In this document: positions 16,649 to 53,274 of the stretch, piece after piece | Position numbering within the stretch: position 1 is the first letter of the stretch | Layout of the letters: each line of letters starts with the position of its first letter | Assembly (NCBI GenBank): GCA_036397855.1 | Contig: DASWID010000128.1 | Location: forward strand, 10,747-74,746 | Length of the DNA: 64,000 bases | From: Thermodesulfobacteriota bacterium | Lineage (GTDB): Bacteria > Desulfobacterota_D > UBA1144 > Nemesobacterales > CSP1-2 | Direction: 5' to 3' | Translations under genes and position numbers: made by a program | The notes under the pieces: generated by a model | What the model was told of the DNA's origin: nothing | Seen by the model: only the letters and a program-made list of their open reading frames with translations | Databases searched by the model: none

Positions 16649-16666
16649 GCAGCAAGGAAAAAGACT

Positions 16667-17035: not shown

Positions 17036-17098
17036 AAGGTAGAAGCCCGCGCGGAACAGCCGTTCATTGGAGCGGCCTGCGCGGGAGCTGCGGCTTCT

Positions 17099-17593
17099 TT
17101 GTTAGGGGTAATTTCGCGTGACTCTTTGGCAGAGGCTATCCGTGCCGAACTTGCGACTCTAGGAGCAGAGATCGTCGATAAAAATCTTGAGAGGGCAGAA
17201 TCAGCCTTCCAACTGATGCGTGATCATTCGGGTTGCGTAATGGAGGGCGAAGATGTTTCAGCGGCTAATTATAACCCTCCAGATTGGGTGGATTTGCCAT
17301 TTGAAGAGGCAAGTAAATCTGCTCCGGCGATCCATGCAGGTCTTACCAGTGTGGAGGTCAAAACGGGCTTGTGGCGCACGCTGCGCCCCGTGATCGATTA
17401 CGACCGCTGTAAGCGCTGCTGGTGGGTTTGCAGCACATTCTGTCCGGATAGTGCCATCCTGGTTACTGCGGGTGGCAGCCCACAGATCGATTATGATCAT
17501 TGTAAGGGCTGCATGATATGCGTGGCTCAGTGTCCATCACATGCAATCGAAGCGATTTGGGAACACGAGGTAAAGGAACATCTAGGGGGCTAA
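17099..17593 (+). CDS. gamma-subunit C-terminal segment fused in-frame to the delta (2x[4Fe-4S] ferredoxin) subunit; no ATG start (track start is TTG)
   Basis: Same frame as 16667-17035. The N-terminus (SLLGVISRDSLAEAIRAEL) matches gamma C-terminal conservation. The C-terminus has two CxxCxxCxxxCP ferredoxin motifs (CKRCWWVCSTFCP, CKGCMICVAQCP). Confidence 0.7.
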   Translation: MLGVISRDSLAEAIRAELATLGAEIVDKNLERAESAFQLMRDHSGCVMEGEDVSAANYNPPDWVDLPFEEASKSAPAIHAGLTSVEVKTGLWRTLRPVIDYDRCKRCWWVCSTFCPDSAILVTAGGSPQIDYDHCKGCMICVAQCPSHAIEAIWEHEVKEHLGG

Positions 17594-17597
17594 AATC

Positions 17598-18845
17598 ATG
17601 ACTCGTACATTGCTCACAGGCAACGGGGCCGCAGCGTGGGGGGGGCGTTTGGCAAGGGTAGACTATATACCTGCATTCCCAATCACACCGCAGACAGAGA
17701 TAATTGAGACCCTTTCCAACTGGATAGACAGCGGGGAAATGGCTGGTCGCCTTGTGATGCTCGAATCCGAACACTCCATGCTTACAGCTGCCGGTGGTGC
17801 GGCTGCCACCGGTGTTCGGGTGTTAAGCGCGACATCGAGTCAGGGATTGTTATATGCTATGGAAATGGTTTATACAGTTGCCGGTTGGCGAACACCTTTT
17901 GTGCTGATAAATGTATCCCGTGGCTTGTCTTCACCAATCACCCTTGAACCAGACCATAACGACGTATTGGCGGCGCGCGACTCTGGGTTTCTGCAGATTC
18001 ATTGTGCTACCTGTCAGGAAGTTTTGGACACTACCCTGATGGCTTTCCGCCTGGCAGAAGATAAACGAGTACGCTTACCCGTCATCGTTAATATGGATGG
18101 ATTCTATCTTTCATTTACCCGTGAGCCTGTGGAATTACCGGAAGCCGGTGCTGTGGATGCTTTTCTGCCACCTTTTGATCCTGAGAACATTGTATTTCGT
18201 GCCAGTACGCCTACGAGTCAGGCAGTCGCTGTACTAGGAGGTTCGCCTTACTCTTATTTTCGTTATGAAATGCACCTTGCCGCCTTGAATGCCCTTGAAG
18301 TGTACGACGAAATTTCAAAGGCATTTGCGCAACAATTCGGAAGGAAACATGATTCGATCGAGTCTTATCAATCTGAGGATGCTGATATTTTGTTTGTTAT
18401 GATGGATTCCTTCGCTACCAAAGCGAAAGCCGCCATTGACCGGTTGCGAGACGCTGGAAAAGCAGTAGGGTTGTTACGTCCGCGACTGATACGTCCCTTC
18501 CCGGCGGAGCATATGCAGCGCTTGCTTGCTGGCAAAAGAGGTGTTGCTGTAATTGATCAGAACCTGTCTATTGGCAAAGGTGGAGTATTACATTCCGAGT
18601 TGGCATCTGTCCTCTATGGTCAGAAGGGAGCCCCACCAATACTGGCAAGTTTTATCGGTGGTCTGGGCGGTCGGGATATCTCTGCCGAAGAATTCTTTGA
18701 AATGGCGGAGGTAACACGCAGGGCAGTCGACTCAGGTAAAACGCCTCCACCCAGGTTGCTATATAACCGTGATGAACTCAGGGAGATCAGAAAATTGCAG
18801 GCGGTAGCCCACGTTGAGCGTCAAGAACTTGGAGAAAAACCATGA
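17598..18845 (+). CDS. 2-oxoacid:ferredoxin oxidoreductase alpha subunit
   Basis: Four-subunit POR/VOR alpha-type sequence of 415 aa; overlaps the beta gene start by 4 nt. Confidence 0.8.
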   Translation: MTRTLLTGNGAAAWGGRLARVDYIPAFPITPQTEIIETLSNWIDSGEMAGRLVMLESEHSMLTAAGGAAATGVRVLSATSSQGLLYAMEMVYTVAGWRTPFVLINVSRGLSSPITLEPDHNDVLAARDSGFLQIHCATCQEVLDTTLMAFRLAEDKRVRLPVIVNMDGFYLSFTREPVELPEAGAVDAFLPPFDPENIVFRASTPTSQAVAVLGGSPYSYFRYEMHLAALNALEVYDEISKAFAQQFGRKHDSIESYQSEDADILFVMMDSFATKAKAAIDRLRDAGKAVGLLRPRLIRPFPAEHMQRLLAGKRGVAVIDQNLSIGKGGVLHSELASVLYGQKGAPPILASFIGGLGGRDISAEEFFEMAEVTRRAVDSGKTPPPRLLYNRDELREIRKLQAVAHVERQELGEKP

Positions 18846-19783
18846 GCGAAACCGAAACTGCATTTAGACGGATGAAGGATTTGCCCTCCACACACCTGCT
18901 GGGTACTGGAACCCCTATGTGCGCCGGTTGCGGTGGGTTACAGGCGCTTCACGTGATCTATGACATCCTGGGTGGAAAGACTGTATTTGTAAATGCCGCA
19001 GGCTGCATGACACTACTATCCGTTTATCCATTCACACCGTTTAGGGGCTCCTGGCTATACACGTCTATGGCTTCTGCGCCCGCTGGAGCGCAGGGGATTC
19101 GTGATGCGTTGGATATTCTGTTGGAACAAAATCGTATTACGCCCGAAGAGGATCTGGATGTCGTGGTGCTGACAGGTGATGGTGCTGCCTATGGAATGGG
19201 ACTCTCTGCCACATCAGGCGCTATGGAACGGGATCTGGATTTTATTTACATCTGTTACGACAATGAGGGATATGGCAACACTGGGCAACAGTACTCTGGT
19301 GCAACACCGCATGCGGCAAGGACGGCAACAAGCAAAGGTCCCCGCGGTTTTGTCGGATACAAGAAGGACTTGTTTTCCATATGGGCTGCGCATAAGCCTG
19401 CCTACTTGGCAACTGTAATAGGCAGCGAGCCAGTTGACCTTGCGCGTAAAATTGAAAAGGTTAAGGACTTAAGAGGCCCTCGTATGATAATTACCCTTGC
19501 ACCTTGCCCAACAGGTTGGGATTTCGATCCGAGCGAGAGTATAGAGATTGGAAAGCTTGCTGTAAAAACAGGCGTGTGGCCTTTAAAAGAATACGTGAAT
19601 GGTAAAGTGGTACACACGAAAAAGCCCTATCCGAGAATACCTATTGAAGAGTATTTGAGGAGACAGGGGAGGTTTGCCCACCTGTTTAAACCAGAGCGAA
19701 ACGAGAGATTGCTCGCAGAGCTTCAGGCAAAGGTAGATGAGTATTGGGAAGACTTAGAGAGAAGCTCATTCGGTACCAGTTGA
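18842..19783 (+). CDS. 2-oxoacid:ferredoxin oxidoreductase beta subunit (TPP-binding)
   Basis: Cys cluster CAGCGG...C and TPP motif TGDGAAYGMG. Confidence 0.8.
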   Translation: MSETETAFRRMKDLPSTHLLGTGTPMCAGCGGLQALHVIYDILGGKTVFVNAAGCMTLLSVYPFTPFRGSWLYTSMASAPAGAQGIRDALDILLEQNRITPEEDLDVVVLTGDGAAYGMGLSATSGAMERDLDFIYICYDNEGYGNTGQQYSGATPHAARTATSKGPRGFVGYKKDLFSIWAAHKPAYLATVIGSEPVDLARKIEKVKDLRGPRMIITLAPCPTGWDFDPSESIEIGKLAVKTGVWPLKEYVNGKVVHTKKPYPRIPIEEYLRRQGRFAHLFKPERNERLLAELQAKVDEYWEDLERSSFGTS

Positions 19784-21531
19784 CAAAGGGGATTGCCAGA
19801 CAATTATCTACAACCCATATGACAGGTACGCTAAAAAGCTATTTCCATCGAGGCGGTCTTGAGCCGCTGCTCGGTGCCACCATCCCTGAGCATTTTGCAG
19901 ATGTGGTGAAACGATTTTCAGATCGAGAAGCAGTCGTCTCGATACTCCAGAATCAACGATTAACCTATGCACAGCTTGCAAACGCTGTAGATAACCTAGC
20001 GCGTGGGCTTTTGGGCATTGGTTTCAATAAAGGTGATCGAATTGGCATCTGGTCTACCAACAATATTGAATGGTTGTTGTTACAAATGGCTACCGCGAGC
20101 ATAGGTGCTATCCTGGTCAACATAAATCCGGCCAATCGTAGCCGAGAATTGGCCCATGCCCTTAAGCTTGCTAATGTGCAGGGTCTATTTCTGATCCCAA
20201 AATTTCGCACCAGTGATTACGTGTCCATGATTATAGAGCTTATCCCGGAACTTGAATCCAAGACTCCCGGGAAGTGGAAGAACGAGGATTTCCCAGCTAT
20301 GAGAAGTGTAGTTATTTACAACCCGGATGACGCCGATGGAACAGAGCGCCCATACGCCGGTTTTCTCACCTGGTGGGAAGTGCTTGCCGAGGGCGGAAAG
20401 GTAACAATTGAGAGGCTTCGGGCGGCGACAGAATTACTTGACCGCGACGACCCAATTAATATCCAGTATACATCGGGTACCACCGGTTTCCCCAAGGCTG
20501 TTGTCCTGACCCATCACAACATCCTTAATAATGCTTATTTCTCCTCTCTTGCGATGCATTTTACCGAGACTGACCGTCTCGTGGTACCCATTCCATTCTA
20601 TCATTGCTTTGGCATGGTACTTGCCAATTTGCTTTGTTTGTCTGTAGGCGGCTGCATCGTGATCCCCAGTGAGCATTTTGATGCGCTATCTGTACTCAGA
20701 GGGGTAGAACAGGAGAGGTGTACGGCCATACACGGGGTACCGACCATGTTCATCGCCGAACTGGAGGATCCCCAATTCAAAGAGTTTGATCTATCTAGCC
20801 TCAGAACTGGAATAATGGCGGGTGCCCCTTGCCAGCCGGCCCTTATGAAGCGTGTTATGGAGGATATGCATTGCAGTGAAATACTTATAGGTTATGGAGA
20901 AACCGAGGCTTCACCGATCACGCATTTAACCACACGTGATGATACATTAGAGCGGCGCACTGAGACCGTAGGTAGAAACTTGCCGCATCAGGAGGTCAAG
21001 GTGGTAGATCTTGATACTGGACGGACCCTGCCACTTGGTGAGGTTGGTGAGATCTGTTTCCGCGGGTACCACGTTATGCTCGGGTATTATGGAGATGAGG
21101 AATCAACCCGTAAAGCCATTGACGATCATGGTTGGCTGCATTCCGGTGATCTGGGTACACTGGATTCCGAGGGTTACGTGCAAATTACAGGAAGGTTGAA
21201 GGAAATGATTATTCGCGGGGGGGAAAATATCTATCCAAGAGAGATTGAAGACTATATCTTTACTCACCCAAAAGTGGCGGAAGTTGCTGTGTTTGGGGTG
21301 CCGGATGAATATTACGGCGAAGAGGTGATGGCATGGATTAAGCTACACGAGGGACAAACGGCAACCGAGAATGAACTGAGGGGATTTTGCAAGGGTAAGA
21401 TTGCTCACTTCAAGATACCTAAATATATCTGGTTTGTGGAGGAATTTCCCATGACAGTAACCGGTAAGCTCCAAAAGTTTCGCATGCGAGAAATCGCGAT
21501 GGAAAAACTGGAGAAACGGAAAATGAAATGA
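19744..21531 (+). CDS. AMP-forming acyl-CoA synthetase / fatty-acid CoA ligase
   Basis: AMP-binding signature YTSGTTGFPKAV and the GYGETE and GWLHSGDLG motifs. The true start is probably the ATG near 19819. Confidence 0.8.
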   Translation: MGRLREKLIRYQLTKGIARQLSTTHMTGTLKSYFHRGGLEPLLGATIPEHFADVVKRFSDREAVVSILQNQRLTYAQLANAVDNLARGLLGIGFNKGDRIGIWSTNNIEWLLLQMATASIGAILVNINPANRSRELAHALKLANVQGLFLIPKFRTSDYVSMIIELIPELESKTPGKWKNEDFPAMRSVVIYNPDDADGTERPYAGFLTWWEVLAEGGKVTIERLRAATELLDRDDPINIQYTSGTTGFPKAVVLTHHNILNNAYFSSLAMHFTETDRLVVPIPFYHCFGMVLANLLCLSVGGCIVIPSEHFDALSVLRGVEQERCTAIHGVPTMFIAELEDPQFKEFDLSSLRTGIMAGAPCQPALMKRVMEDMHCSEILIGYGETEASPITHLTTRDDTLERRTETVGRNLPHQEVKVVDLDTGRTLPLGEVGEICFRGYHVMLGYYGDEESTRKAIDDHGWLHSGDLGTLDSEGYVQITGRLKEMIIRGGENIYPREIEDYIFTHPKVAEVAVFGVPDEYYGEEVMAWIKLHEGQTATENELRGFCKGKIAHFKIPKYIWFVEEFPMTVTGKLQKFRMREIAMEKLEKRKMK

Positions 21532-30045: not shown

Positions 30046-31437
30046 AAATCTATTTGAAGAAGAATCGTTGCCTCATCTAAGAATCTATTCAAAATAGTCT
30101 CCCCCTAGAAAGATAACGGGAGGCATAGATGAGGCTAACCATGGAAGAAAGAAGATCGGTCACTGCAGTAGTGGCGAAGAGGTATCAGAAAGCCACTAAA
30201 AAGGAGAAAGGCACCATCCTTGGAGAGTACACACAACTGACCGTGTATAATCGCTGTTACGCCGCTTTTTTGTTAAGGAATCATGGCCGGAGAGTGAGGA
30301 TCAATAATAACACTGTTTTGGTGGGGGACTGTAGAAAGAGGGTTAAGAGGACCAGGGACAGGACCTACGATGAGCAGGTAGTTAGGGTTTTGAAGAGGGT
30401 ATGGCTGATCATGGGTTTTATATGCGGTAAGAGACTTAAGCCAGCCTTGAAGGAGGTCATTCCCGTCTTGGAGAAGTATAAGGAGATAGAGCTGGATAAG
30501 ACCGTCAGAGAGAAATTGTCTAAGATCTCTGCCGCCACTATAGACAGAGTATTAGCTCCGGAGCGTAAGAAAAGGTCCCTTCGCCAAAGAGCCAGGACTA
30601 AGCCGGGCACATTACTCAAGCATCAGATACCGATAAGGACCTTCTCTGAGTGGGATGAGCAAAGACCGGGTTTTGTAGAGATAGACCTGGTGGGGCACGA
30701 GGGAGGAGACCCCAGTGGGGATTATATCCAGACCCTGGATATGACCGATGTATGCACCGGTTGGACTGAGACCCAGGCGGTTAAGAACAAGGCCCGGGTG
30801 TGGGTGTTTGAGGCACTTAAGGAAATAAGAAAGCGCTTACCTTTTAAGCTCTTGGGAATAGATTCAGACAATGGGTCAGAGTTTATAAACGATCATCTCT
30901 ATCGTTATTGCGAGGAGGAGAAGATCACTTTTACCAGGGCCCGAGCTTATCGGAAGAATGATAACTGCTACGTAGAGCAAAAGAACTACTCAGTGGTCAG
31001 GCGTGGGGTGGGTTATCATCGTTACGATACTCCCCAGCAACTACGACTGTTAAACCAACTGTATTCCCGCTTAAGGCTATATACTAACTACTTCCAGCCG
31101 GTGATGAAACTGGAGGAAAAGATTCGGGTGGGAAGCAAGGTGAAAAAGAGGTATGACCAGCCAAGGACACCATACCAGAGGGTGTTAGAAGCACCCCTGG
31201 GGGAGAAAGAAAAAAAGGAAAAGTTAAACCAAGAGTATGCTAAACTAAATCCGGCAGAACTGAGAAGACAGATAACCACACTACAAATTAAACTCAGAAA
31301 GTTGGCAGCAAAAGAAAATTTAAAAAAAAGAAATCACAAACAGAATTACAAAAATGAAGAAAATGAAAAGGATTTAGAGTATATTTCTGGTGAGGCAACG
31401 AATTAACTTTCAAATAGATTTTTATGTGAGGCAATAG
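30046..31437 (+). mobile_element. insertion sequence (about 1.4 kb) with composite imperfect terminal inverted repeats
   Basis: Left end AAATCTATTTGAAGAAGAATCGTTGCCTCA (30046-30075) matches the reverse complement of the right end (31391-31421) at about 26/30 positions. Extra half-sites lie at 30081-30096 and 31425-31437, so exact boundaries are uncertain by roughly 20 bp. The element encloses a single DDE transposase gene. Confidence 0.7.
30129..31406 (+). CDS. DDE-type (rve integrase-core) transposase; IS family not assigned
   Basis: N-terminal HTH; D (VEIDLVGHEGG), D (GIDSDNGSEF) and E (CYVEQKN) catalytic triad of the rve family. The stop codon lies inside the right terminal repeat. Confidence 0.8.
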   Translation: MRLTMEERRSVTAVVAKRYQKATKKEKGTILGEYTQLTVYNRCYAAFLLRNHGRRVRINNNTVLVGDCRKRVKRTRDRTYDEQVVRVLKRVWLIMGFICGKRLKPALKEVIPVLEKYKEIELDKTVREKLSKISAATIDRVLAPERKKRSLRQRARTKPGTLLKHQIPIRTFSEWDEQRPGFVEIDLVGHEGGDPSGDYIQTLDMTDVCTGWTETQAVKNKARVWVFEALKEIRKRLPFKLLGIDSDNGSEFINDHLYRYCEEEKITFTRARAYRKNDNCYVEQKNYSVVRRGVGYHRYDTPQQLRLLNQLYSRLRLYTNYFQPVMKLEEKIRVGSKVKKRYDQPRTPYQRVLEAPLGEKEKKEKLNQEYAKLNPAELRRQITTLQIKLRKLAAKENLKKRNHKQNYKNEENEKDLEYISGEATN

Positions 31438-31852
31438 TGTCCTTATGTTACTTGGTTATGCTTAACCTCCCTCAAGCAAAGGCTGAAACTATATTTTAAA
31501 AATTTTCGATATAAGAAGGAAATTAAAAAGGAATCAGATCAGATCGGAAATACCTACCGTCAGGAAATCATACATTCTGACACACGAAAAAAAACTTATG
31601 TGCGTAACTTACTCTAATAATAGGGACATTCTCTGGTATGATTGTTGTCGTTTTAGATATGCAATGATAATGAATATCCTTTCTGGAAACATATCGATTA
31701 TCAATCTATCCCCGAAACAATCACACAACTTATCCTCCGGGTCCAAGATTATAAAAATTTTTCAATATCAACTCTTTAATATCAGAAGGTTATGTTTATT
31801 AAGATGAGTTTTCAGATTATTTTAGACAGCGGTAGCATAGGAGGTTCAAAAT

Positions 31853-32293
31853 ATGGGTATGGAATATGAAGTAAAAGCAGAGCAGGTGGTGCCAAACGTC
31901 TCTACGGTGCGAACTAAGGAGGCACAAATCTACTTCGATTCATCACCCGGACAAAGCGAGTATCTCTTTAACCCTGCTGAGTTATTTCTGAGCGCATTTG
32001 CCGCATGTATTTTGAAGAACGTCGAGCGTTTCTCGGAGAGGCTAAAATTTGCCTATAACAAAGCTTCTATAAAGGTACACGGTGTACGAGAGGAACCTCC
32101 GCCACGTCTGACTACGATTAAATATGAACTGACTCTATATACAAATGAATCACCACAAAGAATAGATCTTCTCCGCCGCAATCTCGAAAAATATGGAACA
32201 ATCTACAATACAGTAGCAAATACTTGTGAGATTTCAGGAGAAATAATCCCGGTTAATCCGGTGGATCAATCGGACATCCATACACCGATCTAA
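31853..32293 (+). CDS. OsmC/Ohr-family peroxiredoxin-like protein
   Basis: 146 aa with an OsmC-like pattern (FNPAELFLSAFAACILKN...). A GGAGG RBS precedes the ATG. Confidence 0.6.
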   Translation: MGMEYEVKAEQVVPNVSTVRTKEAQIYFDSSPGQSEYLFNPAELFLSAFAACILKNVERFSERLKFAYNKASIKVHGVREEPPPRLTTIKYELTLYTNESPQRIDLLRRNLEKYGTIYNTVANTCEISGEIIPVNPVDQSDIHTPI

Positions 32294-32482
32294 GAACTAA
32301 ATACCGCATTTTCTCTCCCTGAAGTAAGCTGTTTACAAGACAAGTATCTGATCATCCTGAGTTCATCGAAGGATAATCACGTTCACACCGACCTAAAAGT
32401 GCCCTTCGACAAAGCTCAGGGCTTCAGGACGAACAGGTCTGACTAAACTTTAACCACTATAGATAAAAGGCAAGCATGCGAG

Positions 32483-32692
32483 CTACTCCTTCCTGAGGCT
32501 GGGCCACGCTGAGAAAGCAACAACATACAGCGTGATGATATTAACGACAGGTACCACCATCAGAAGGCTTAGCCACTTGGAGTAACCTGCTTTGCCAAAG
32601 ATGAACCAAAACGGGATCACGATTAAGACTGCAAAAATTAGCATCATAAATGGCCCGAATGGCCACATGGGAGCACCAGACATATCAGGCAT
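32483..32692 (-). CDS. small hydrophobic membrane protein (two predicted TM segments)
   Basis: Strong RBS (AAAGGAGGTG) 5 nt upstream of the ATG on the minus strand; a 69-aa hydrophobic product. Confidence 0.5.
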   Translation of the reverse strand: MPDMSGAPMWPFGPFMMLIFAVLIVIPFWFIFGKAGYSKWLSLLMVVPVVNIITLYVVAFSAWPSLRKE

Positions 32693-33148
32693 TACGCACC
32701 TCCTTTCAGTAGAGACAGCTAACTAACAATTAGACAGCAAAAATGCAGTATAATTTTCCTGTACTGCTAACCATCTTTTCTTCTAGCTATATTATGTTAC
32801 TTAATACAACAGTAGTAGCTATCATGAAAGCGTCTACCTTGCATTAAGCACAAGAACCAATACAAAAGCCATAACGAAGAAACAGAAAAAAAAGGGAGCC
32901 AATATTTCCATTTGCCTATACCATTTAAAATACCTTCAGATAGACTAAAAGCAAGATTCGACGCAAAAGGCGACGAGGAAAAATCGTTTTGAATTTAAGA
33001 AGATGGAATTTCGGCTAAGCCTGTTTCAGACTTCAGTGATCATATGGCAATCGTGATTTATAAAGGGTCAGGTGCATGACCGTATATTTACCAAAAAAGA
33101 TCGGGTGAATATAGTCATTGGATCTAGGTCTTATGATTTTTTGAGGTA

Positions 33149-33427
33149 CTAATTTGATGAAGAACCAGTCCAAACCCTCTTAATTAATCCGATGATTAGC
33201 CTTGAATATGTCTCATCCGTAAGGAAGCCGTAAATCCCTAGAACTATGAATTGGATACCTACGCAAACCAATAAAGAACCCATGGTACGGTTTAATACAT
33301 TGATTCCAGTCGTTACTAAGGGCGAAACTATCTTAGAGTGCCCTTTCAATGCCAAAAACGATAGTAAAGGAACTATTGCGATGCCGATAGTTGTTTGATA
33401 CGATAGCGAAAGAATATCTTTGATCAA
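33149..33427 (-). pseudogene. membrane-protein fragment (possible remnant), TTG start, no clear RBS
   Basis: Hydrophobic 92-aa ORF in a gene-poor region next to another gene remnant. Weak call. Confidence 0.25.
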
Positions 33428-33598
33428 TCATGGCTTATGCCTTCTCTTTTCAAATAAATAGTTGCAAACGGTAAACCTTGATCGTTGATTAACATATCTT
33501 ATATTCCGTCGTAGGGACTTGATGAATCTAATTTTTTCAAAATCTAGAGTATGGAGGAAGGTGATTTTTTTATAGTGGAGGTGAGGTTTGATCTTAAT

Positions 33599-33793
33599 GT
33601 AATGGACATGAAATTAGTTGAAGATGAACGCGGTGGAATCGAAGCCTCAGATGCTTTTATTCCAGCAGTTTTATCAATTATTTTGATTGTGGTTCGGACT
33701 GCCTTAGAGGACAGTACGCTTCAAAAGGAACTTCCTGGATATTTGGAATATGTATCCAGGGTAGGTTACAAACTTATCCCGTGGGTTTGGTAG
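33599..33793 (+). pseudogene. C-terminal remnant of an ICMT/phospholipid-methyltransferase-family membrane protein
   Basis: The tail ...EDSTLQKELPGYLEYVSRVGYKLIPWVW resembles the conserved C-terminus (EE..L...FG..Y.EY...VPR.IP) of the isoprenylcysteine carboxyl methyltransferase family. No N-terminal catalytic part is present. Confidence 0.35.
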
Positions 33794-34117
33794 AGGTGAA
33801 TGAATTTCGTGCATATCAAGTCCTCCATGCAAAATTGTACCCTATGAGTGATAAATAATATGAGGATTTAAAATTGTTAATAACGCCGAAGTAATGTTCT
33901 TGTGGAACTTAAATGAATATTCGCTGTTTCAGTCAAATTTGATAGTAAAAAAATAATATCGTAGACAATCGATTCCTCTTAAAAATGTGCACAAACTATT
34001 TTGTACCTGATTTAATAAAAATACTGTTTAGGACTGGAAATTAGTTGAAGAAGGACTATATTATTATTGGGTATGGGGTTAAAAGCGGCAAGAACCTTCT
34101 CAAGATTGAGAGGTTGC

Positions 34118-34150
34118 CCAAAAGGCCAGAAAAACTGGCCTTTTATTTTA
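34118..34150. terminator. rho-independent terminator-like hairpin (AAAAGGCCAG-aaaaa-CTGGCCTTTT followed by a T-run); bidirectional potential
   Basis: 10-bp stem, 5-nt loop and TTTTATTTTA on the plus strand; an A-run on the other side gives a U-run for the minus strand. Confidence 0.5.
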
Positions 34151-34323
34151 TGGAGTAACACGTAGTTGTTGCATGGATAATTAGAAAAACCCGATAATCA
34201 GGTTGTTTGAAATTTTTCTCTTGAATTTTTCCGCTTCCAGGTAAAAAAGGATTAAACGCTTTTAGCTCTAATGCCTAATACCCCACGTGAAGTCACTTCA
34301 CTGAGCGAATATTTGTATTATTA

Positions 34324-34584
34324 TCAATGGTGGTAGTAAATTTTGTTTATGCGATTTAGATGCTCTTCTTCATCTTGTATCACATTCCCACAACCTTCAC
34401 AGTAAACGACATCGACGAAAGGGCTATGTTCACTGTGAGCCCTTCTTATGGCTTCCACATAAACAAGATTGTTTGTGTTTGGACATCTGATGGCCAATTT
34501 TTCTGCTATTTCATCGAAGAAATACTCCATGTGAGGAATGTTACCATGTTTTTTTTCTATCATTAATCTGGTCATTATTATCAC
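34324..34584 (-). CDS. small Cys-containing hypothetical protein (possible zinc-binding, CEGCG motif)
   Basis: Strong RBS AGGAGGTGAT 4 nt upstream of the ATG; 86 aa. Confidence 0.5.
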   Translation of the reverse strand: MIIMTRLMIEKKHGNIPHMEYFFDEIAEKLAIRCPNTNNLVYVEAIRRAHSEHSPFVDVVYCEGCGNVIQDEEEHLNRINKIYYHH

Positions 34585-34784
34585 CTCCTATCTATTTTTA
34601 ATATAAACACAGTTGACTTGAATTAAAGGTCTTATAACCCCTTTTCACCATGGAAATAGTGTCAAGATGGATTAGCCTATCCTTATTCGATTAGATTAAA
34701 GCGATTTTCCAGCTAAGCCCGTCTAAGCTTGAGCTCACCGATCCCTTCTTGGGTTACAATAATAATATAGAAATAGAAATCGTA

Positions 34785-35138
34785 TCATCCTTCCAAACCC
34801 GCAAGAAATTTAATTTTCTCTTTCAGATCATCTTTTGTCACTTCATAGATGTTAAAGGCCTTATTCAATGTAACCATCATGATGTTTTCAGCAACGATCT
34901 TGTCATGCCCTTCAACCCAATAAAGGCAAACAATCATCTCCATTCCGTCGGGATGCTTAATCATAATGGACTTGTGCTTTTTTATGCCCATTATTGCGGG
35001 TCTATCGGGTACGACCTTTACTTCAAATCCATTTTCTCCGTTATACTCCTCGATAAGCTCTTTGAAAATAGGCGTGATAAGATTTTCAAACAGCTCGTTT
35101 GCTTTCTCGTTAAGTTGACTTGTTAAATCTTCGCTCAA
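34785..35138 (-). CDS. hypothetical protein
   Basis: Coherent 117-aa translation on the minus strand (TTG start). Preferred over the overlapping low-complexity plus-strand ORF at 34749-35126. Confidence 0.35.
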   Translation of the reverse strand: MSEDLTSQLNEKANELFENLITPIFKELIEEYNGENGFEVKVVPDRPAIMGIKKHKSIMIKHPDGMEMIVCLYWVEGHDKIVAENIMMVTLNKAFNIYEVTKDDLKEKIKFLAGLEG

Positions 35139-35247
35139 TACATTCGCCTTTAATTTCGTATAGTCTATAACATTGCTTCTCCATTGTATATTTTTAGCAT
35201 CGATTTATGTTTCGGATTTCATAGCTTTTTTGAACTACTTCTTCAAT

Positions 35248-45249: not shown

Positions 45250-46341
45250 ATGAGACCGACCTGGGCTGAAATTGATATTAATTCACTCAAATCAAATTTT
45301 CTTCATGTTAAAAAGCTTATTGGTAACGGGACCAGTATCGTGTCAATTGTCAAAGCCGATGCTTATGGACATGGTGCGATAGCAGTGAGTAAAGCTCTGT
45401 TCGAATTGTGTGGTTCCCAAATGTTTGGTGTGGCAACGGTCGATGAGGCTCTAGAGCTTAGGGAATCGGGTATAAGAGCACCCATATTAGTCTTGGCTGG
45501 AATCGATCCAAACGAAGCTGAAAACGTCGTTAAGAGTGAATTAACGCCTACTATCTATTCACTCCAAATTGCATCTATCCTTAATGAGTACGCAAGCAAG
45601 CTAGGTATACGATTGGGCTATCATCTAAAGATAGATACAGGAATGACGAGGCTCGGAGTAAGGATTGACGAGCTTCATGGCTTCATGGATGAAATTCTTC
45701 GCTTGAAGAATTTAAAGATGGAAGGGCTATTTAGCCACTTTTCAAATGCCGATATGGAACTGGTCGAGTACACTCTGAGACAGATACGAATTTTTAAGGA
45801 TATTCATTCCATCATAAATCAGGCAGGTGTTTTTCCGAAGTACCTTCATATAGCGAATAGTTCGGCTATTCAGAGATTCCCTGCATCGCACTTGAATCTT
45901 GTGCGGCCGGGAATAATGCTATATGGTTCCGGCATTAATCAAAAGGTTAAATTAAGCCCTGTCATGAAGTTAAAGACGAGGGTGATGCAGATAAAACAGG
46001 TTCCACCTGGCGTCCCTATAAGCTACGGTGGTACATTTGTTACAAAGAGGCCTACAGTTATTGCCATATTACCAATTGGTTATGCCGATGGTTATATGAG
46101 GGCCCTTTCTAATCGTGCTAAGGTATCAACAAAAGGCTATAGTGCCCCTGTGGTGGGGAAGGTATGTATGGATCTCACAATCATAGATGTAACGGATGTA
46201 CCTGGAATCAAAGAAGACGATGAAGTCATTCTTTTTGGAGATGAGTCGGTAACGGTTGAAGACGTGGCACGGTGGGCTGGGACAATTTCATATGAAATTT
46301 TGTCAATAACTGGTAAAAGAGTCCCTCGTGTTTATGTATAA
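45250..46341 (+). CDS. alr: alanine racemase
   Basis: PLP-lysine motif SIVKADAYGHGA; 363 aa. Confidence 0.85.
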   Translation: MRPTWAEIDINSLKSNFLHVKKLIGNGTSIVSIVKADAYGHGAIAVSKALFELCGSQMFGVATVDEALELRESGIRAPILVLAGIDPNEAENVVKSELTPTIYSLQIASILNEYASKLGIRLGYHLKIDTGMTRLGVRIDELHGFMDEILRLKNLKMEGLFSHFSNADMELVEYTLRQIRIFKDIHSIINQAGVFPKYLHIANSSAIQRFPASHLNLVRPGIMLYGSGINQKVKLSPVMKLKTRVMQIKQVPPGVPISYGGTFVTKRPTVIAILPIGYADGYMRALSNRAKVSTKGYSAPVVGKVCMDLTIIDVTDVPGIKEDDEVILFGDESVTVEDVARWAGTISYEILSITGKRVPRVYV

Positions 46342-46385: not shown

Positions 46386-47984
46386 ATGCCGAGGGTTAAT
46401 AAAGTTTTCGAACGGTTTATCATTCTATCATTGCAATTGTTATCCTTATCTGTTTTTGCTGATATTTCTTTTTGTGTTGAAGGCATTCATTTAGGTCCGT
46501 TATTAAGTATCGAAAGTGATCCAGAAACTCATACCCAAGAGACAAATGCTCTAGGACCGTTTATAACATCAAGGCAAAATGAAGAAGCGACAGAGTTTGG
46601 ATTTCGTCCCTTTTTTTATTCTATTAACAATAGAGAAAAGAATTCAAGCGAGTTTGATATAGTTTATCCCATCGCAACATATGATAGGAGGGACGATAAT
46701 TGGAGATTCCAGCTTCTTGTGTACTTGTTTTATCTCGAATCTGAAAAAACAAAGAATGGATTTAATGAGAAAGAATTTAATCTATTCCCATTTATATTCT
46801 CAAAGTGGGCTGAAAATAAAGAGAATAGTTACTTTGCATTTTTCCCATTTTTTGGAAATATGAAAAACAAATTTTATAAGGATGAGATCAGATTTGTTCT
46901 CTTCCCTTTATTTCTGCAGACCAGAGAGGGTGAGGAGATTAACAGTAGTTTTCTTTGGCCTTTTTTTGCCTATTATAAAGGTGGCGGACAAAGCGGGTTC
47001 AGATTCTGGCCTCTTTTTGGTTATAGAAAAAAGGAGGAAAAGCTGGACGAGAAGTTTGCACTTTGGCCCTTCATTATCTCTAGAAAAAGGGTTTTTTATG
47101 GCGAGGAGAGAAATACATTTTCAATCTTTCCTTTTTATACAAGCTTTGAATCACCTGATTTCACGAATAAGACTTACTTTTGGCCTTTTTTCAATTATGT
47201 TGAAGATAAAAAAAAGGGGTTCACACAATTAAGTGCACCTTGGCCATTTATCGGGTTCACAAGGGGTACAAGGGAGGGGAATAGATTCTTCCCCTTTTAT
47301 GCCAATTACATTGGAGAAAGAGGGAGTGGAAGAGTAGTTCCGTTCTATTCGGAGAACAAAAAGGAATCAAGAGCCGAAGGTTATCAGGACAGTGATGGAT
47401 TTATACTTTGGCCACTTTATAGGTACAGTTCGGTAACACTTGAAGATTATAGAAGAGACAGTAAATCCGTTTTATTGATTCTTTACAAGGATATTAAAGA
47501 TGAGCCAATAATTGAGGGTGGTACGGGTGGTAGGAGAATCGATCTCTGGCCCCTTTTCAGCTATAGAAGAGATAAAGACGGAAATCGATCACTCCAGATT
47601 ATTTCACTATTGGAACCCTTGGTTTTTGGTGTCGACGGGCTGGAAAGAAATTATTCACGTCTCTGGCGCTTTTTTGAATGGAGAAAATATAGTGATGGGA
47701 GGACTGTCACTTCTTTTCTGTGGAATACGTTCAGAACAGAATACAACAAGGAAAGTACTAACGTAATTTTACAGCCAATCATCCCGATATTCTCTTATAC
47801 TCGTGCAGTAGAAGGATCTAAAACACATTTTTTTGGCGGTCTTTTTGGCTATCAAAATATGGGTCTGAAAAGGAAATTAAAGTTTCTATTCGTTCCAATC
47901 ACTATTAGTTCAGGGGAGAAAGAGGAAAATAAATCGGAGGAAATAAGTGAACAGTATAACTACCTTTTTTCAAACCACAGGTGA
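46386..47984 (+). CDS. secreted tandem-repeat protein (at least 15 repeats of about 20-24 aa with [LF][WF]P[FL][FY].Y motif)
   Basis: Signal peptide, then repeats such as LWPFFAYYKGGG, FWPLFGYRKKEE, LWPFIISRKRV, FWPFFNYVEDKKKG, PWPFIGFTRG, LWPLYRYSS and LWPLFSYRRDKDG, read directly from the translation. Confidence 0.6.
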   Translation: MPRVNKVFERFIILSLQLLSLSVFADISFCVEGIHLGPLLSIESDPETHTQETNALGPFITSRQNEEATEFGFRPFFYSINNREKNSSEFDIVYPIATYDRRDDNWRFQLLVYLFYLESEKTKNGFNEKEFNLFPFIFSKWAENKENSYFAFFPFFGNMKNKFYKDEIRFVLFPLFLQTREGEEINSSFLWPFFAYYKGGGQSGFRFWPLFGYRKKEEKLDEKFALWPFIISRKRVFYGEERNTFSIFPFYTSFESPDFTNKTYFWPFFNYVEDKKKGFTQLSAPWPFIGFTRGTREGNRFFPFYANYIGERGSGRVVPFYSENKKESRAEGYQDSDGFILWPLYRYSSVTLEDYRRDSKSVLLILYKDIKDEPIIEGGTGGRRIDLWPLFSYRRDKDGNRSLQIISLLEPLVFGVDGLERNYSRLWRFFEWRKYSDGRTVTSFLWNTFRTEYNKESTNVILQPIIPIFSYTRAVEGSKTHFFGGLFGYQNMGLKRKLKFLFVPITISSGEKEENKSEEISEQYNYLFSNHR

Positions 47985-48726: not shown

Positions 48727-49557
48727 ATGGTAATAAAACAACAGCTTCCTGATGCTGAAGAATTGAACGAGAATGAAAATTTTCTACATCAATATTTAGG
48801 AAGCATAGCTGTAGGTGTGAAAATAGCAAAGTTAGAAAAATCGTTTGCGGATAACCATGTTTTAAAGGGGATAGACCTCGATATAAAACCAGGAGAAACT
48901 ATTGTTATCCTGGGTAAGAGTGGGGCGGGGAAAACTATATTGCTCAGGCATATTATCGGACTGGAGAAACCCGACTCTGGAAACATCTACATCAATGGCG
49001 AGGATATTAATAGCCCAGATTTCAGTAAAAAACACAGGATAGCGATGGTTTTTCAGTCTTCTGCACTTTTTAATTCACTTTCGGTAAAAGAGAATGTTGC
49101 CCTTTATCTTAGGGAACATAAGATATTCAGGGATGAGGACAAGATAGATAAAATCGTTTCTGATTCTCTATCAATTGTTGGTTTAGACGGTAAGGAAACC
49201 AGTATGCCTAATGAGTTAAGTGGGGGTATGAAAAGAAGGGTTGCTATAGCTCGAGCTTTAGTGATGAATCCTGAACTTATTCTATATGATGAACCTACGA
49301 CTGGGCTTGACCCGATGATGACCAGAACCATTGGTGATGTTATTTTGAATCTTAGAGAGCACGTGGAGGTTACTCAGATAGTTGTCACACATAATATTGA
49401 TTTAGCTTTTCATATCGCGGATAGAATCGCTCTCATAAGTGAAGGGCAGATAATAGCGGTGGGGTCACCTGAGGATATAGAAAAGAGTACAAATCCGATA
49501 GTTCAAACATTTACAAGAGAGCAGTTTGAAAGACCACAGGGAGGTAATAAGTCATGA
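48727..49557 (+). CDS. mlaF: Mla-type ABC transporter ATP-binding protein
   Basis: Walker A GKSGAGKT, ABC signature LSGGMKRRVAIARAL and Walker B LILYDEPT. Confidence 0.8.
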   Translation: MVIKQQLPDAEELNENENFLHQYLGSIAVGVKIAKLEKSFADNHVLKGIDLDIKPGETIVILGKSGAGKTILLRHIIGLEKPDSGNIYINGEDINSPDFSKKHRIAMVFQSSALFNSLSVKENVALYLREHKIFRDEDKIDKIVSDSLSIVGLDGKETSMPNELSGGMKRRVAIARALVMNPELILYDEPTTGLDPMMTRTIGDVILNLREHVEVTQIVVTHNIDLAFHIADRIALISEGQIIAVGSPEDIEKSTNPIVQTFTREQFERPQGGNKS

Positions 49558-50546
49558 GTACAGAGTTTAAGGTGGGCGTCTTTTTCGTAGTAGGTTTGCT
49601 GATTCTTCTAGCAGTATTTGAATTCATTGGAGGGATACCGTTTCTGGGCGGTGAGTACACACTCAAAACATATTTTCAATCGGTAGACGAGCTCAGGGAA
49701 GATAATCCTGTTAAGCTTAACGGGGTTGACATCGGTACTGTCTCAAAGATCAAAATAGCAGATAACAGGATAGAGGTTATTATGAGTGTTAAAAAAGGGG
49801 TTGTTATTAAAGAAGATTCTGTAGCGACAATAAGACTCACAGGTCTTCTTGGAACTAGCTATGTTAACGTTTCATTCGGGTCTCCCGAAAGCCCTGTGGC
49901 CGTCCCTGGATCAGTTATAGCGAGTCAGGAACCGGCAGATATCAATGAGATCCTCGTAAAGGTGGAGTCCGCTGTTAGCTCTTTGGATTCGGCATTTGCA
50001 GCGTTTGATGTATTAGGTGAAAACAAGGAACAGATTACCAAGATCATAAATAATGTTGATTCAGTCCTCGCAGATCTGTCAGAGGGGAAAGGAACACTTG
50101 GGAAGCTCTTGAAAGATGATTCCCTTTATGAAGAAGCGAAAGGGGCTTTAGCTAATATCAATGACATTTCATCATCCGTAAAGGAAGGAAAGGGGACTTT
50201 GGGAAAACTTGTGACTGACCCATCTCTCTTTGATGAAACCAAGTCAGCAATGTCAAACCTCGCCAAGCTCAGTGATAGCTTGAGCACTTCAAAGGGTACG
50301 TTAGGGAAATTGCTCAATGACGACTCGCTCTATAATCAGGCTAATGAAGCTGCTACGAATCTTAACTCAGTTTTGAAAAAGATTAATAGTGGACAGGGGA
50401 CGTTGGGTAAGCTTGTAAACGACGAATCCCTGTACTTTGATGCGCAGAATACACTTAAAAAGGTTGATAAGGGAGTAGACACTGCCGTAGATTTGGCTCC
50501 GCTGAGTATAATAGGAACTTCTATAGGTGTCATCACACTCTTTTAA
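49554..50546 (+). CDS. mlaD: MCE-domain protein MlaD with extended C-terminal region of four 34-aa repeats (GxGTLGKL[LV].D.SL[YF]...)
   Basis: N-terminal TM, an MCE domain, then four tandem repeats between about 50085 and 50470. Confidence 0.8.
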   Translation: MSTEFKVGVFFVVGLLILLAVFEFIGGIPFLGGEYTLKTYFQSVDELREDNPVKLNGVDIGTVSKIKIADNRIEVIMSVKKGVVIKEDSVATIRLTGLLGTSYVNVSFGSPESPVAVPGSVIASQEPADINEILVKVESAVSSLDSAFAAFDVLGENKEQITKIINNVDSVLADLSEGKGTLGKLLKDDSLYEEAKGALANINDISSSVKEGKGTLGKLVTDPSLFDETKSAMSNLAKLSDSLSTSKGTLGKLLNDDSLYNQANEAATNLNSVLKKINSGQGTLGKLVNDESLYFDAQNTLKKVDKGVDTAVDLAPLSIIGTSIGVITLF

Positions 50547-52337: not shown

Positions 52338-52787
52338 ATGCAAAAAATTGTTTGTAAGAATCCCAAAGCGCATAGAGATTTCTTTCTTGAGGAAAGCTAT
52401 GAAACCGGAATAGAACTAAAGGGTTCAGAGGTCAAATCTCTACGCGATGGAAAGGCGAGTATTAAGGAGAGCTTTGCAATCGTAAGGGGCGAAGAATTGT
52501 TTTTAATCAACAGTTATATAGCTCCCTACGAAAGTGCAAACAGATTTAATCACGAACCGGAGAGGGATAGGAAATTGCTACTTCATAGAGGCGAGATCAA
52601 TCGTCTCATCGGAAAAACACAGATAAGAGGTTATACATTGATACCGGTTAAGATGTATTTTACTAATGGTCTTGCTAAGGTAGAATTAGCCCTTGCAAAA
52701 GGGAAAAAATCGTTTGACAGACGTGAGGATATAAAACGCCGCGACGCAGAAAGAGAAGTTGAAAAAGCTTTAAAGAGACGCTACTGA
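52338..52787 (+). CDS. smpB: SsrA-binding protein
   Basis: Canonical SmpB sequence (KNPKAHRDFFLEESYETGIELKGSEVKSLR...). Confidence 0.9.
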   Translation: MQKIVCKNPKAHRDFFLEESYETGIELKGSEVKSLRDGKASIKESFAIVRGEELFLINSYIAPYESANRFNHEPERDRKLLLHRGEINRLIGKTQIRGYTLIPVKMYFTNGLAKVELALAKGKKSFDRREDIKRRDAEREVEKALKRRY

Positions 52788-52917: not shown

Positions 52918-53274
52918 GGGGGCGAAATGGCTTCGACGGGGAATGGGATAGCTTGAGCTGCATGTCGAGCTTCTGTTAACTCGTAAAACTGGCAGAGCAC
53001 GTAAAAGTGCCGAACCAATTAATGCACTCGCAGCCTAAATAGAGCTGTGACGTCTCTAAAAACCTCACCCGTTGGGTTTTTATGAGGCGCCGAATAGACG
53101 GGTTAGTTGGTTGTTGGTGCTTGAGACATAAACTGACGAAACAAATTCTCAAGCTGGAAGTGAAAATCCTGCCCATCGGAGATTTCACTTTGAGAATATA
53201 AGGCTGGGCTAAACATGTAGAAGCTGGGTGAAGCTCTTTCTCGGACCTGGGTTCGATTCCCAGCGCCTCCACCA
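52918..53274 (+). ncRNA. ssrA: transfer-messenger RNA (tmRNA, SsrA)
   Basis: 5' end GGGGGCGAAAUGGCUUCGACGGG; 3' tRNA-like end GGACCUGGGUUCGAUUCCCAGCGCCUCCACCA. The internal tag reading frame GCC GAA CCA ATT AAT GCA CTC GCA GCC TAA reads (A)AEPINALAA-stop. Positioned immediately downstream of smpB. Confidence 0.9.

Follow-up and report, generated by a model that had tools for sequence, protein, structure and literature searches.

By what route does an MlaEFD transporter with a long MlaD, and with neither MlaA nor MlaC, reach the outer membrane? MlaEFD-only systems have been argued to be the common, ancestral form (Grasekamp et al., PMC10665443); long MlaD proteins often have no barrel but terminate in a short beta or hydrophobic element, leaving their outer-membrane connection unexplained (PMC10665443), and the way in which needle-type MCE proteins engage or cross the outer membrane has been stated to be unresolved (Giacometti et al., PMC13631591). 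In the window, by which we mean the whole 64-kb stretch of DNA analysed here, genes for such a transporter directly follow a gene for a protein of aromatic-turn beta-hairpin repeats, which we call REP (Table 1). We found that the REP family is almost always encoded beside needle-type MlaEFD and is therefore a strong candidate for the missing outer-membrane-side partner. Our preferred reading, to which we give a probability of about one half, is that REP is exported and serves as the accessory subunit in a needle-type MlaEFD (MCE) lipid transporter of four parts, with a rim in the inner leaflet of the outer membrane, and that it receives the MlaD needle.

Table 1. Features of the REP–mlaEFD locus (positions in the window).
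Feature	Position	Strand	Basis
Alanine racemase gene (alr), conserved upstream neighbour of the module	45250..46341	+	Pfam
REP gene, 532 aa, aromatic-turn beta-hairpin repeats	46386..47984	+	ORF
REP signal peptide, aa 1–30; probable signal peptidase I cleavage after ..SFC	46386..46475	+	Sequence; AF2 helix 3–27
Predicted unbroken run of 45 short beta-strands, aa 34–509, about 22 hairpins; odd turns aromatic/hydrophobic, even turns charged/Gly	46485..47912	+	AF2
Best-conserved repeats, aa 127–399, consensus F-x-[LF]-[WF]-P-[LF]-[FY]-G-Y-[RK]-[KR]	46764..47582	+	Motif and shuffle test; repeat HMM and logo
GGAGG Shine–Dalgarno-like site and GTG start of mlaE, within the REP 3' end	47936..47949	+	Sequence
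mlaE permease gene, 255 aa	47947..48714	+	PF02405 9.9e-78; TIGR00056 9.1e-71
mlaF-type ABC ATPase gene, 276 aa	48727..49557	+	PF00005 4.5e-36; MlaF NF008809 5.7e-50, below its cut-off
Long needle-type mlaD/MCE gene, 330 aa: transmembrane helix aa 3–22, MCE domain aa 34–125, helical repeats aa 130–311	49554..50546	+	PF02470 4.2e-17; AF2 secondary structure
Hydrophobic C-terminal tail of MlaD, aa 313–330, DLAPLSIIGTSIGVITLF	50490..50543	+	Conservation

Gene order and its conservation

The overlap between the REP gene and mlaE that an earlier note on this DNA had described is real: the mlaE GTG at 47947 lies 38 nt inside the REP ORF, preceded by GGAGG at 47936–47940, and the 255-aa MlaE read from this start agrees with homologue lengths. 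At the corresponding junctions in homologues, the distance between the REP and mla genes ranges from −34 to +187 nt, with an overlap of 4 nt in Trichloromonas. Scanning for promoters and terminators revealed nothing beyond the level of shuffled sequences and yields no operon boundaries.

Related loci were searched for with a 14-sequence REP alignment as the query. The synteny of REP with mlaEFD, which the earlier note had seen at this one locus, recurs across reference genomes, where 46 of the 54 REP loci are linked to mla genes, five are uninformative and three are unlinked. The 46 linked loci show three gene orders (24 REP-E-F-D, 18 E-F-D-REP and four F-REP-E-D), and linkage to mla, which extends over several phyla, is also kept in Planctomycetota and in three loci whose flanks are unrelated. 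The unlinked loci (L041, L054 and L059) hold distant members of the family, and the position of these three away from mla genes is a point against our preferred reading. The alr gene precedes the module whether the order is REP-E-F-D or E-F-D-REP, and is probably context rather than a component of the module.

REP might also be an envelope protein with some other function, for example in the peptidoglycan or a surface layer, the gene of which merely rides in the alr–mla neighbourhood. The conservation of alr as a neighbour is consistent with such an arrangement, as are the three unlinked members, but the adjacency to mla is kept although the REP gene may precede mlaE, follow mlaD or stand between mlaF and mlaE, it persists where alr and all other flanks differ, and the REP and mla reading frames overlap or abut; we consider this explanation improbable. 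[quoted passage not shown]

The REP family and its export signal

A word-index search returned 1148 REP homologues and a profile search 2481 clusters at 50% identity, none of them annotated. The length of the family is close to 490 aa (5–95%: 461–547 aa) and the alignments are collinear over the 2481 clusters, a narrow range and a regularity that, at the level of sequence, suggest a fixed architecture. REP had not been recognised as belonging to any repeat family in the earlier note, and this is borne out: REP has no Pfam, NCBIfam or PDB-sequence match (for Pfam, none at E ≤ 0.01 with the window protein), and a comparison of 47 members with Pfam gave nothing recurrent at E ≤ 1. In particular, PF03886, the family of PqiC, PA3214 and MpcA, does not match the window protein and does not recur among the 47 members, REP matches neither PF04333 (MlaA) nor PF05494 (MlaC), the MORN (PF02493) and YD/RHS repeat profiles are unmatched by the 47 members even at E ≤ 1, and the Pfam searches revealed no sequence relation to the Lpt or AsmA families. 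Fused Pfam domains were not found in the eight longer members, and a literature search found no description of the family, which in our view deserves its own database entry.

The N-terminus of REP has a basic n-region, then a hydrophobic core and a small-residue cleavage region, MPRVNKVFERFIILSLQLLSLSVFADISFC, directly before VEG; homologues with SFG followed by EE at the cleavage position point to signal peptidase I. Similar N-termini occur in 199 of the 249 full-length family members, which agrees with the signal peptide proposed in the earlier note. A lipobox is present in 17 of the 249 (~7%), where the +2 residue is A, S, L or K and never Asp (n = 17); the +2 rule for lipoprotein sorting is established for enterobacteria only. 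For the window protein itself, we considered and rejected lipoprotein status, because Phe occupies position −1 in its ..ISFC and the Cys is replaced by Gly in homologues. At the other end, the protein finishes in ..YLFSNHR within a tail that AF2 predicts to be disordered, the C-terminal tail varies across the family, and the final residue is F, W or Y in only 6.4% of members (n = 250). The fact that most members have neither a lipid anchor nor an outer-membrane-protein beta-signal is a point against the retention at the outer membrane that our preferred reading entails.

The aromatic repeat

We counted the strict motif [LFIVWY][WFY]P[FLIVY][FYILV] in REP and in 5000 shuffles of its sequence. 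The protein contains 11 copies, whereas the shuffles average 0.25 and never exceed 3, so the aromatic repeat reported in the earlier note is genuine. A repeat HMM finds 11 strong and about six degenerate copies in the window protein and a median of nine copies per homologue, and none in shuffled sequences. The earlier estimate of at least 15 repeats is a fair one, because these 11 strong and about six degenerate copies are accompanied by about 22 hairpins in the AF2 model; the period, however, is 17–21 aa with a median of 19, rather than the 20–24 aa given previously.

The repeat logo has aromatic residues at −4, −2, −1, +1, +2 and +4, basic residues at +5/+6 and acidic residues at −8 to −6. 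The repeats had been described as centred on the aromatic motif and as having a basic or acidic turn after it. The motif is present, but it corresponds to the hairpin turn and not to the centre of a strand, and although the basic residues do follow it, the acidic ones precede it. These acidic residues lie near the proposed interface belt (see below), which is a further point against our preferred reading.

Predicted fold and chemistry of the turns

The AF2 model of REP has a pLDDT of 85.2 and a pTM of 0.69, and its 45 strands are 4–8 aa long and mostly polar. The turns fall into two alternating classes. Odd turns have a Wimley–White value of −0.58 and are 1% charged, whereas even turns have a value of +0.54 and are 43% charged (p = 3e-8); 22 of 22 odd turns are interfacially favourable on the Wimley–White scale and 22 of 22 even turns are polar, an asymmetry that is conserved in 46 homologues. 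All the aromatic turns probably lie on one edge of the sheet, where they would constitute a hydrophobic rim. Hydrophobicity is polarised along the strand axis rather than between the two sheet faces. In the distal half of the sheet both faces carry polar residues, and there are opposite-charge pairs at +6/−6, as in solvent-exposed single-layer sheets.

These features bear on the possibility that REP handles lipids within the periplasm, with the aromatic turns lining an internal greasy core or tunnel, either as a soluble carrier like MlaC or stacked on the needle so as to extend the conduit. The polarisation along the strand axis, in place of one across the faces, the ion-paired polar distal half, and strands that are too short for the U-shaped grooves of Lpt/AsmA-type proteins all argue against such a core, and so do the lack of a sequence relation to the MlaC, Lpt or AsmA families and the ~7% of members that are lipoproteins; we regard it as unlikely.

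The structural neighbours of the REP model are exclusively antiparallel meander sheets, and Foldseek gave no global match among solved chains, every TM value being ≤0.20, barrels included. A beta-solenoid or beta-roll was rejected, all structural neighbours being antiparallel. The earlier note had found the repeats compatible with a large beta-barrel or beta-solenoid, and its leading idea, an outer-membrane barrel, would make REP a BAM-assembled integral protein forming the outer-membrane pore of the system, a reading consistent with the Sec signal peptide. However, the 45 polar strands are too short for a bilayer, which requires about nine residues or more for spanning, the hydrophobic residues are gathered in alternate turns, probably along one edge, rather than in a belt along the strands, and a C-terminal beta-signal is absent, the tail being variable and disordered. 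A classical transmembrane barrel is thus unsupported and, in our judgement, very improbable. Of the earlier proposal that REP is a novel outer-membrane or periplasmic partner of the MCE transporter, the coupling to MlaEFD is upheld by the synteny, and the transmembrane barrel form is not.

Mean-field DCA of 251 members (effective depth ~201) was uninformative, giving gap and alignment artefacts and a spurious 142/367/414 clique. Several known single-layer or meander beta-hairpin repeat folds, namely OspA, the CPAP/SAS-4 G-box, MORN repeats and the YD shells of teneurin/RHS proteins, have no sequence relation to REP and no global match to its model (TM ≤ 0.20), and none of them has its strict alternation of aromatic, uncharged turns with charged ones.

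MlaD and the PA3211–PA3214 system

The model TIGR00996 spans aa 7–276 of the window MlaD, PF02470 together with PF28544 (Helical_needle) is found in 120 of 120 close relatives, and Mce1B in the PDB matches the protein up to aa 256. Its AF2 monomer has a pLDDT of 52, a low confidence that is to be expected when a hexameric needle is modelled as a monomer, and was used for secondary structure only. A hydrophobic C-terminal tail is present in nearly all MlaD proteins linked to REP; D313, L314, A315, P316, L317, G321, G325 and F330 are invariant in it, and the final residue is Phe in 120 of 120 close relatives.

The best PDB relative of the window MlaD is PA3213 of P. aeruginosa (13HR chain I, E = 2.7e-11). 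The PA3211–PA3214 system (PMC13631591; PDB 13HQ, 13HR and 13HS) has the same parts, namely an MlaF-like ATPase, an MlaE-like permease, a single-MCE helical-needle protein of ~310–330 aa and an exported fourth component. The C-terminal peptide of PA3213 confers specificity by binding to a hydrophobic groove on the outer-membrane lipoprotein PA3214 (PMC13631591), and the tail of the window MlaD is likewise hydrophobic and strongly conserved, although it comprises ~14–18 hydrophobic residues ending in Phe, compared with seven residues in PA3213. The fourth components differ: PA3214, a PqiC-like lipoprotein, has ~200 aa and assembles into an octameric ring, whereas REP is a single chain of 532 aa made of all-beta hairpin repeats, without a PF03886 match, usually without a lipobox and with an unrelated predicted fold.

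Proposed role of REP

REP is probably an envelope-side partner of the transporter close to the outer membrane, taking the role of PqiC, PA3214 and MpcA with an unrelated fold. On our preferred reading, the aromatic edge would form a hydrophobic rim ~10–15 Å deep, with a belt of Tyr, Arg and Lys above it, and this rim would be inserted into one leaflet of a membrane, most likely the inner one of the outer membrane, while the ion-paired charged half of the sheet would remain periplasmic. REP would receive or surround the tip of the MlaD needle, probably by way of the MlaD C-terminal tail, in the role that the PqiC-type lipoproteins PA3214 and MpcA or the C-terminal barrel of Veillonella MlaD fill in related systems, and would thereby complete the lipid path between both membranes. 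REP is a concrete, widespread and unannotated candidate for the outer-membrane connection of MlaEFD-only transporters, supported by an unusually clean synteny and by a predicted architecture without a solved counterpart, the chemistry of which suggests insertion into one leaflet; through a four-gene operon, the question of this connection becomes experimentally testable.

The rim chemistry would fit either membrane, and REP might alternatively be placed near the inner membrane, with its rim in the periplasmic leaflet around the MlaE2F2D6 base, for example in lipid loading or scaffolding. The absence of a Lol-type lipid anchor from most members is in keeping with this placement. On the other hand, the known four-gene relatives have their extra exported component at the outer-membrane end, in MlaD it is the C-terminal tail, located at the distal tip of the needle, that is conserved but has no partner assigned to it, and the lipoprotein members never have Asp at +2, which is a weak argument. 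An inner-membrane site seems to us very improbable.

A more specific form of the preferred reading can be offered tentatively, at somewhat less than even odds: REP may belong to a class of envelope component not described before, in which one chain with a set number of beta-hairpins makes up a ‘crown’ or collar. With its aromatic rim anchored in the outer membrane's inner leaflet, it would capture the hydrophobic tails at the C-termini of the MlaD hexamer that forms the needle. REP would thus supply the outer-membrane port that ‘minimal’ MlaEFD systems lack in Thermodesulfobacteriota, Planctomycetota and other phyla, and would have arisen independently to do what PqiC-type rings, MlaA or a fused MlaD barrel do elsewhere.

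Relation to other envelope transport systems

The chimeric Mla–Pqi system MpcEFDA of Brucella abortus (PMC12436622) also combines an MlaE/MlaF-type transporter with one outer-membrane-side partner, MpcA, and has no MlaA or MlaC; MpcA co-purifies with MpcEFD (PMC12436622). The Brucella MlaD, of 331 aa and with a repeated coiled-coil needle, matches the 330-aa window protein in size and repeat character. Unlike REP, MpcA is a PqiC-homologous lipoprotein, and MpcE carries a fused STAS (MlaB-like) domain that the 255-aa MlaE of the window lacks. The ‘minimal’ MlaEFD of Veillonella parvula (PMC10665443) shares with the present system an MlaEFD-only core and a long MlaD proposed to bridge the envelope, and the window MlaD belongs to the barrel-less class of long MlaD proteins described in the same study. 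The Veillonella MlaD carries its outer-membrane element as a C-terminally fused beta-barrel, whereas here MlaD ends in a short tail and the candidate element is encoded by a separate conserved gene.

In the classical Mla pathway of E. coli, the ABC/MCE core is the same and is served by MlaA–OmpC/F and MlaC, of which MlaA lies within the inner leaflet of the outer membrane. MlaA, however, is an alpha-helical lipoprotein, and REP shows no sequence relation to MlaA or MlaC; moreover, the classical MlaD is short and dependent on a soluble shuttle, whereas the MlaD of the window is long and of the needle type.

The REP gene and protein family

REP, the 532-aa aromatic-turn β-hairpin repeat protein, had been noted from its sequence to carry a signal peptide and a repeat array, and both are borne out. 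On inspection, the N-terminus (MPRVNKVFERFIILSLQLLSLSVFADISFC/VEG) shows the elements of a Sec signal peptide, which indicates that the protein is exported, and because homologues read ..SFG/EE.. at the position aligned with the cleavage site, REP is probably cleaved by signal peptidase I rather than lipidated. The strict motif [LFIVWY][WFY]P[FLIVY][FYILV] occurs 11 times, whereas 5000 shuffled versions of REP contained it 0.25 times on average and three times at most; its spacing is 17–21 aa from aa 133 to 265. A repeat HMM recognized 11 strong and approximately six degenerate copies in REP and a median of nine per homologue, but had no matches when the family sequences were shuffled. The measured period is ~19 aa, instead of the 20–24 aa first estimated. 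The reported overlap of the 3′ end of the gene with the start of mlaE was also confirmed and amounts to 38 nt, the GTG start codon being preceded by a GGAGG sequence, and by Pfam and NCBIfam models the genes that follow directly encode MlaE, an ABC ATPase and an MlaD/MCE protein.

REP has no match at E ≤ 0.01 in Pfam or NCBIfam, and neither database has a model for its family; relaxing the Pfam threshold to E ≤ 1 for 47 family members produced nothing recurrent. With the threshold at E ≤ 10, the family profile still matched nothing among PDB sequences, and literature searches returned no description of the family. A word-indexed search gave 1148 matches, every named one of them ‘hypothetical’, and an exhaustive profile search gave 2481 clusters at 50% identity (E ≤ 1e-3), 879 of these at E ≤ 1e-30. 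The nearest relatives are in metagenome bins of Candidatus Dadabacteria and Thermodesulfobacteriota, with 81% identity at two loci (L006 and L007), and the window itself probably belongs to this lineage. Open-ended repeat arrays usually vary in repeat number among proteins; here, the alignments are full-length and collinear, with a median length of 493 aa (5–95%, 461–547 aa), and this narrow range suggests an architecture that is fixed and possibly closed. One member found in the profile search (P0247, 1767 aa, without a Pfam domain) has 11 separate matched stretches and appears to carry the hairpin-repeat module several times in tandem.

Linkage to the mla genes

The synteny of REP with mlaEFD was followed across genomes, using one genome per species, and the resulting 54 REP loci were classed by tblastn with ORF and Pfam checks. 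The gene adjoins mla genes at 46 of these, in the orders REP-E-F-D (24 loci), E-F-D-REP (18) and F-REP-E-D (four), where E, F and D are the permease, ATPase and MCE genes; five loci, cut by contig ends, are uninformative, and the three that are unlinked (L041, L054 and L059) are all distant, at 22–28% identity. REP lies directly 5′ of mlaE-mlaF-mlaD, with differing flanks, on a Trichloromonas contig, a 2.67-Mb Thermodesulfobacteriota chromosome and a high-GC contig. By record title, although bin labels may be unreliable, the loci come from Dadabacteria, Desulfobacterales, Thermodesulfobacteria (Thermosulfurimonas and Thermodesulfatator), Ca. Abyssobacteria and Planctomycetota.

REP is thus strongly tied to the MCE transporter, and the preservation of its adjacency in three different arrangements points to a function in common rather than mere neighbourhood, so that an envelope protein with a function unrelated to MCE transport is an improbable reading. 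In the earlier note, REP was proposed as an MCE partner at the outer membrane or in the periplasm; adjacency supports the partnership, whereas the outer-membrane placement is one that we infer.

Predicted structure and turn asymmetry

An AlphaFold2 model of REP built on a 47-sequence alignment (pLDDT 85.2, pTM 0.69) has an N-terminal helix, corresponding to the signal peptide, and then 45 β-strands of 4–8 residues that follow one another in a continuous run; aa 311–334 and 511–532 are disordered, and a short helix is inserted at aa 410–427. Foldseek found no solved chain with a query TM-score > 0.20, and the structural neighbours of sheet type are single-layer or meander antiparallel proteins (OspA, the CPAP/SAS-4 G-box, MORN arrays and teneurin/RHS YD shells), alongside phage spikes. 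This places REP, by prediction, in the class of antiparallel β-hairpin meanders, without a globally similar solved structure.

When the predicted strands were mapped on the sequence, [LF][WF]P[FL] fell at every second turn, and the intervening turns were charged or Gly-rich; the aromatic motif, originally taken as the centre of the unit, is instead the predicted turn of each hairpin. The 22 odd-numbered turns have a mean Wimley–White interfacial energy of −0.58 kcal/mol per residue, with 45% aromatic and 1% charged residues, compared with +0.54 kcal/mol per residue, 11% and 43% for the 22 even-numbered turns (P = 3e-8; one long loop excluded from the means of each set), and values were equal in 46 homologues. 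In the family-wide logo, the invariant Pro (position 0) is preceded by Phe (−4), Leu/Phe (−2) and Trp/Phe (−1) and followed by Leu/Phe (+1), Phe/Tyr (+2), Gly (+3) and Tyr (+4), with basic residues at +5 and +6 and acidic residues at −8 to −6.

Successive turns of an antiparallel meander fall alternately on its two edges. With this geometry, one edge of the REP sheet would form an essentially uncharged rim of ~100 hydrophobic residues, with a Tyr/Arg/Lys belt beneath it, and in the distal half of the sheet both faces would be polar, oppositely charged residues being paired across the hairpin. Hydrophobicity would then be polarized along the strands, not between faces, a pattern expected for one edge inserted in a lipid leaflet and not for a transmembrane barrel or a two-layer soluble core. 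Burial of the rim in a soluble protein that binds lipid or serves as a conduit is an unlikely but not negligible alternative to such insertion. The large β-barrel suggested in the earlier note is disfavoured: the modelled strands are short and polar, the β-signal is absent (aromatic C-termini in 6.4% of the family) and the model has no barrel-like global similarity, so that we regard a true outer-membrane barrel as very unlikely.

The partner MlaD and a possible role for REP

The window MlaD (330 aa) has a transmembrane helix (aa 3–22), an MCE domain (aa 34–125, pLDDT ~80) and ~180 residues of helices with four G-x-G-T-L-G-K-L..D-x-S-L-Y repeats, ending in the tail DLAPLSIIGTSIGVITLF. All 120 close relatives (P0263–P0382) match PF02470 and PF28544 (Helical_needle) and have an invariant D-L-A-P-L..G...G....F tail with a terminal Phe; an acidic-Pro-hydrophobic tail is present on nearly every REP-adjacent MlaD, including the distant E-F-D-REP and F-REP-E-D clades. 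The partner is thus a needle-type MlaD with a conserved tail. Its top solved relative is PDB 13HR chain I (E 2.7e-11), which is P. aeruginosa PA3213 (PMC13631591), and an Mce1B match extends through aa 256. The tail partly resembles an OMP β-signal (Gly at −5 and terminal Phe), and it could be inserted as a β-strand instead of docking as a peptide.

The PA3213 needle, ~35 Å thick and 170 Å long, threads an octameric ring of the PqiC-like outer-membrane lipoprotein PA3214 (PMC13631591). Brucella MpcEFDA has the layout of PA3211–PA3214, and MpcA co-purifies with MpcE, MpcF and MpcD (PMC12436622). In Veillonella, an outer-membrane barrel is fused to MlaD; according to the authors of that study, such a barrel is missing from most long MlaD proteins, which terminate in short elements whose connection they leave unexplained (PMC10665443). 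The window module follows the same plan as PA3211–PA3214 and MpcEFDA, with an ABC core (E and F), an MlaD of the needle type whose C-terminal tail is conserved, and a single additional protein that is exported. REP, however, shares neither sequence, size nor predicted fold with PqiC, and usually lacks a lipid anchor. A lipobox occurs in ~7% of family members, never with Asp at +2, which is weakly consistent with an outer-membrane location; a role close to the inner membrane seems most improbable.

REP would be a new type of accessory component in a trans-envelope MCE lipid transporter of an otherwise known kind. We give a probability of about 0.5 to the complete mechanism, in which the aromatic rim would be seated in the inner leaflet of the outer membrane and REP would dock or encircle the needle tip by way of the MlaD tail, thereby standing in for PqiC, MlaA or a fused barrel. 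Such a mechanism would explain, concretely and in a form open to testing, how needle-type MlaEFD-only systems reach the outer membrane.

Neighbouring genes

Features of the window, with positions and strands
Feature	Position	Strand	Remarks
977-aa protein	12077–15010	−	Peptidase M1, ChaN/Tiki haem-binding-type domain and C-terminal PDZ; unusual combination
High-GC stretch	16001–21500		GC 0.49–0.51, ~0.40 elsewhere
Integrase-core (rve) ORF	30129–31406	+	Weak match, under gathering score
ORF-poor stretch	31400–35200		~3.5 kb, few ORFs ≥ 120 aa
Divergent ORF, 427 aa	40899–42182	−	No Pfam match; counterpart at locus L003 recorded as DUF7986
VWA-domain protein, 522 aa	43635–45203	+	PF13519; conserved upstream of alr in Dadabacteria-type loci
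Alanine racemase (alr)	45250–46341	+	Immediately upstream of mla module
REP gene	46386–47984	+	532 aa
GGAGG ahead of mlaE	47936–47940		
mlaE GTG start	47947		
Conserved MlaD tail	50490–50543		MlaD aa 313–330
ParB-like protein, 317 aa	50547–51500	+	Weak N-terminal domain, PF02195 at 2.1e-05, under gathering score
smpB	52338–52787		PF01668; tmRNA gene directly downstream
tmRNA gene, complete	52918–53274	+	Rfam RF00023, 190 bits
Spurious ORF, 100 aa	52976–53278	−	Overlaps tmRNA gene

The alr gene lies directly 5′ of the mla module whether the order is REP-E-F-D or E-F-D-REP (L022, L024, L029, L031, L033 and L043), so the alr–mla neighbourhood appears to predate the place of REP within it. The ParB-like ORF begins one base past the mlaD stop codon, and such a gene follows mlaD in Dadabacteria-type loci and not in other clades; it may be a lineage-specific member of the operon. 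The high-GC stretch encodes a 2-oxoacid:ferredoxin oxidoreductase (POR_N/PFOR_II, TPP_enzyme_C) and an AMP-binding enzyme; the DNA may have been acquired, or these genes may simply differ in composition. An Rfam scan of the ORF-poor stretch found no RNA family, and this stretch, together with the integrase-like ORF, may represent a degraded mobile element.
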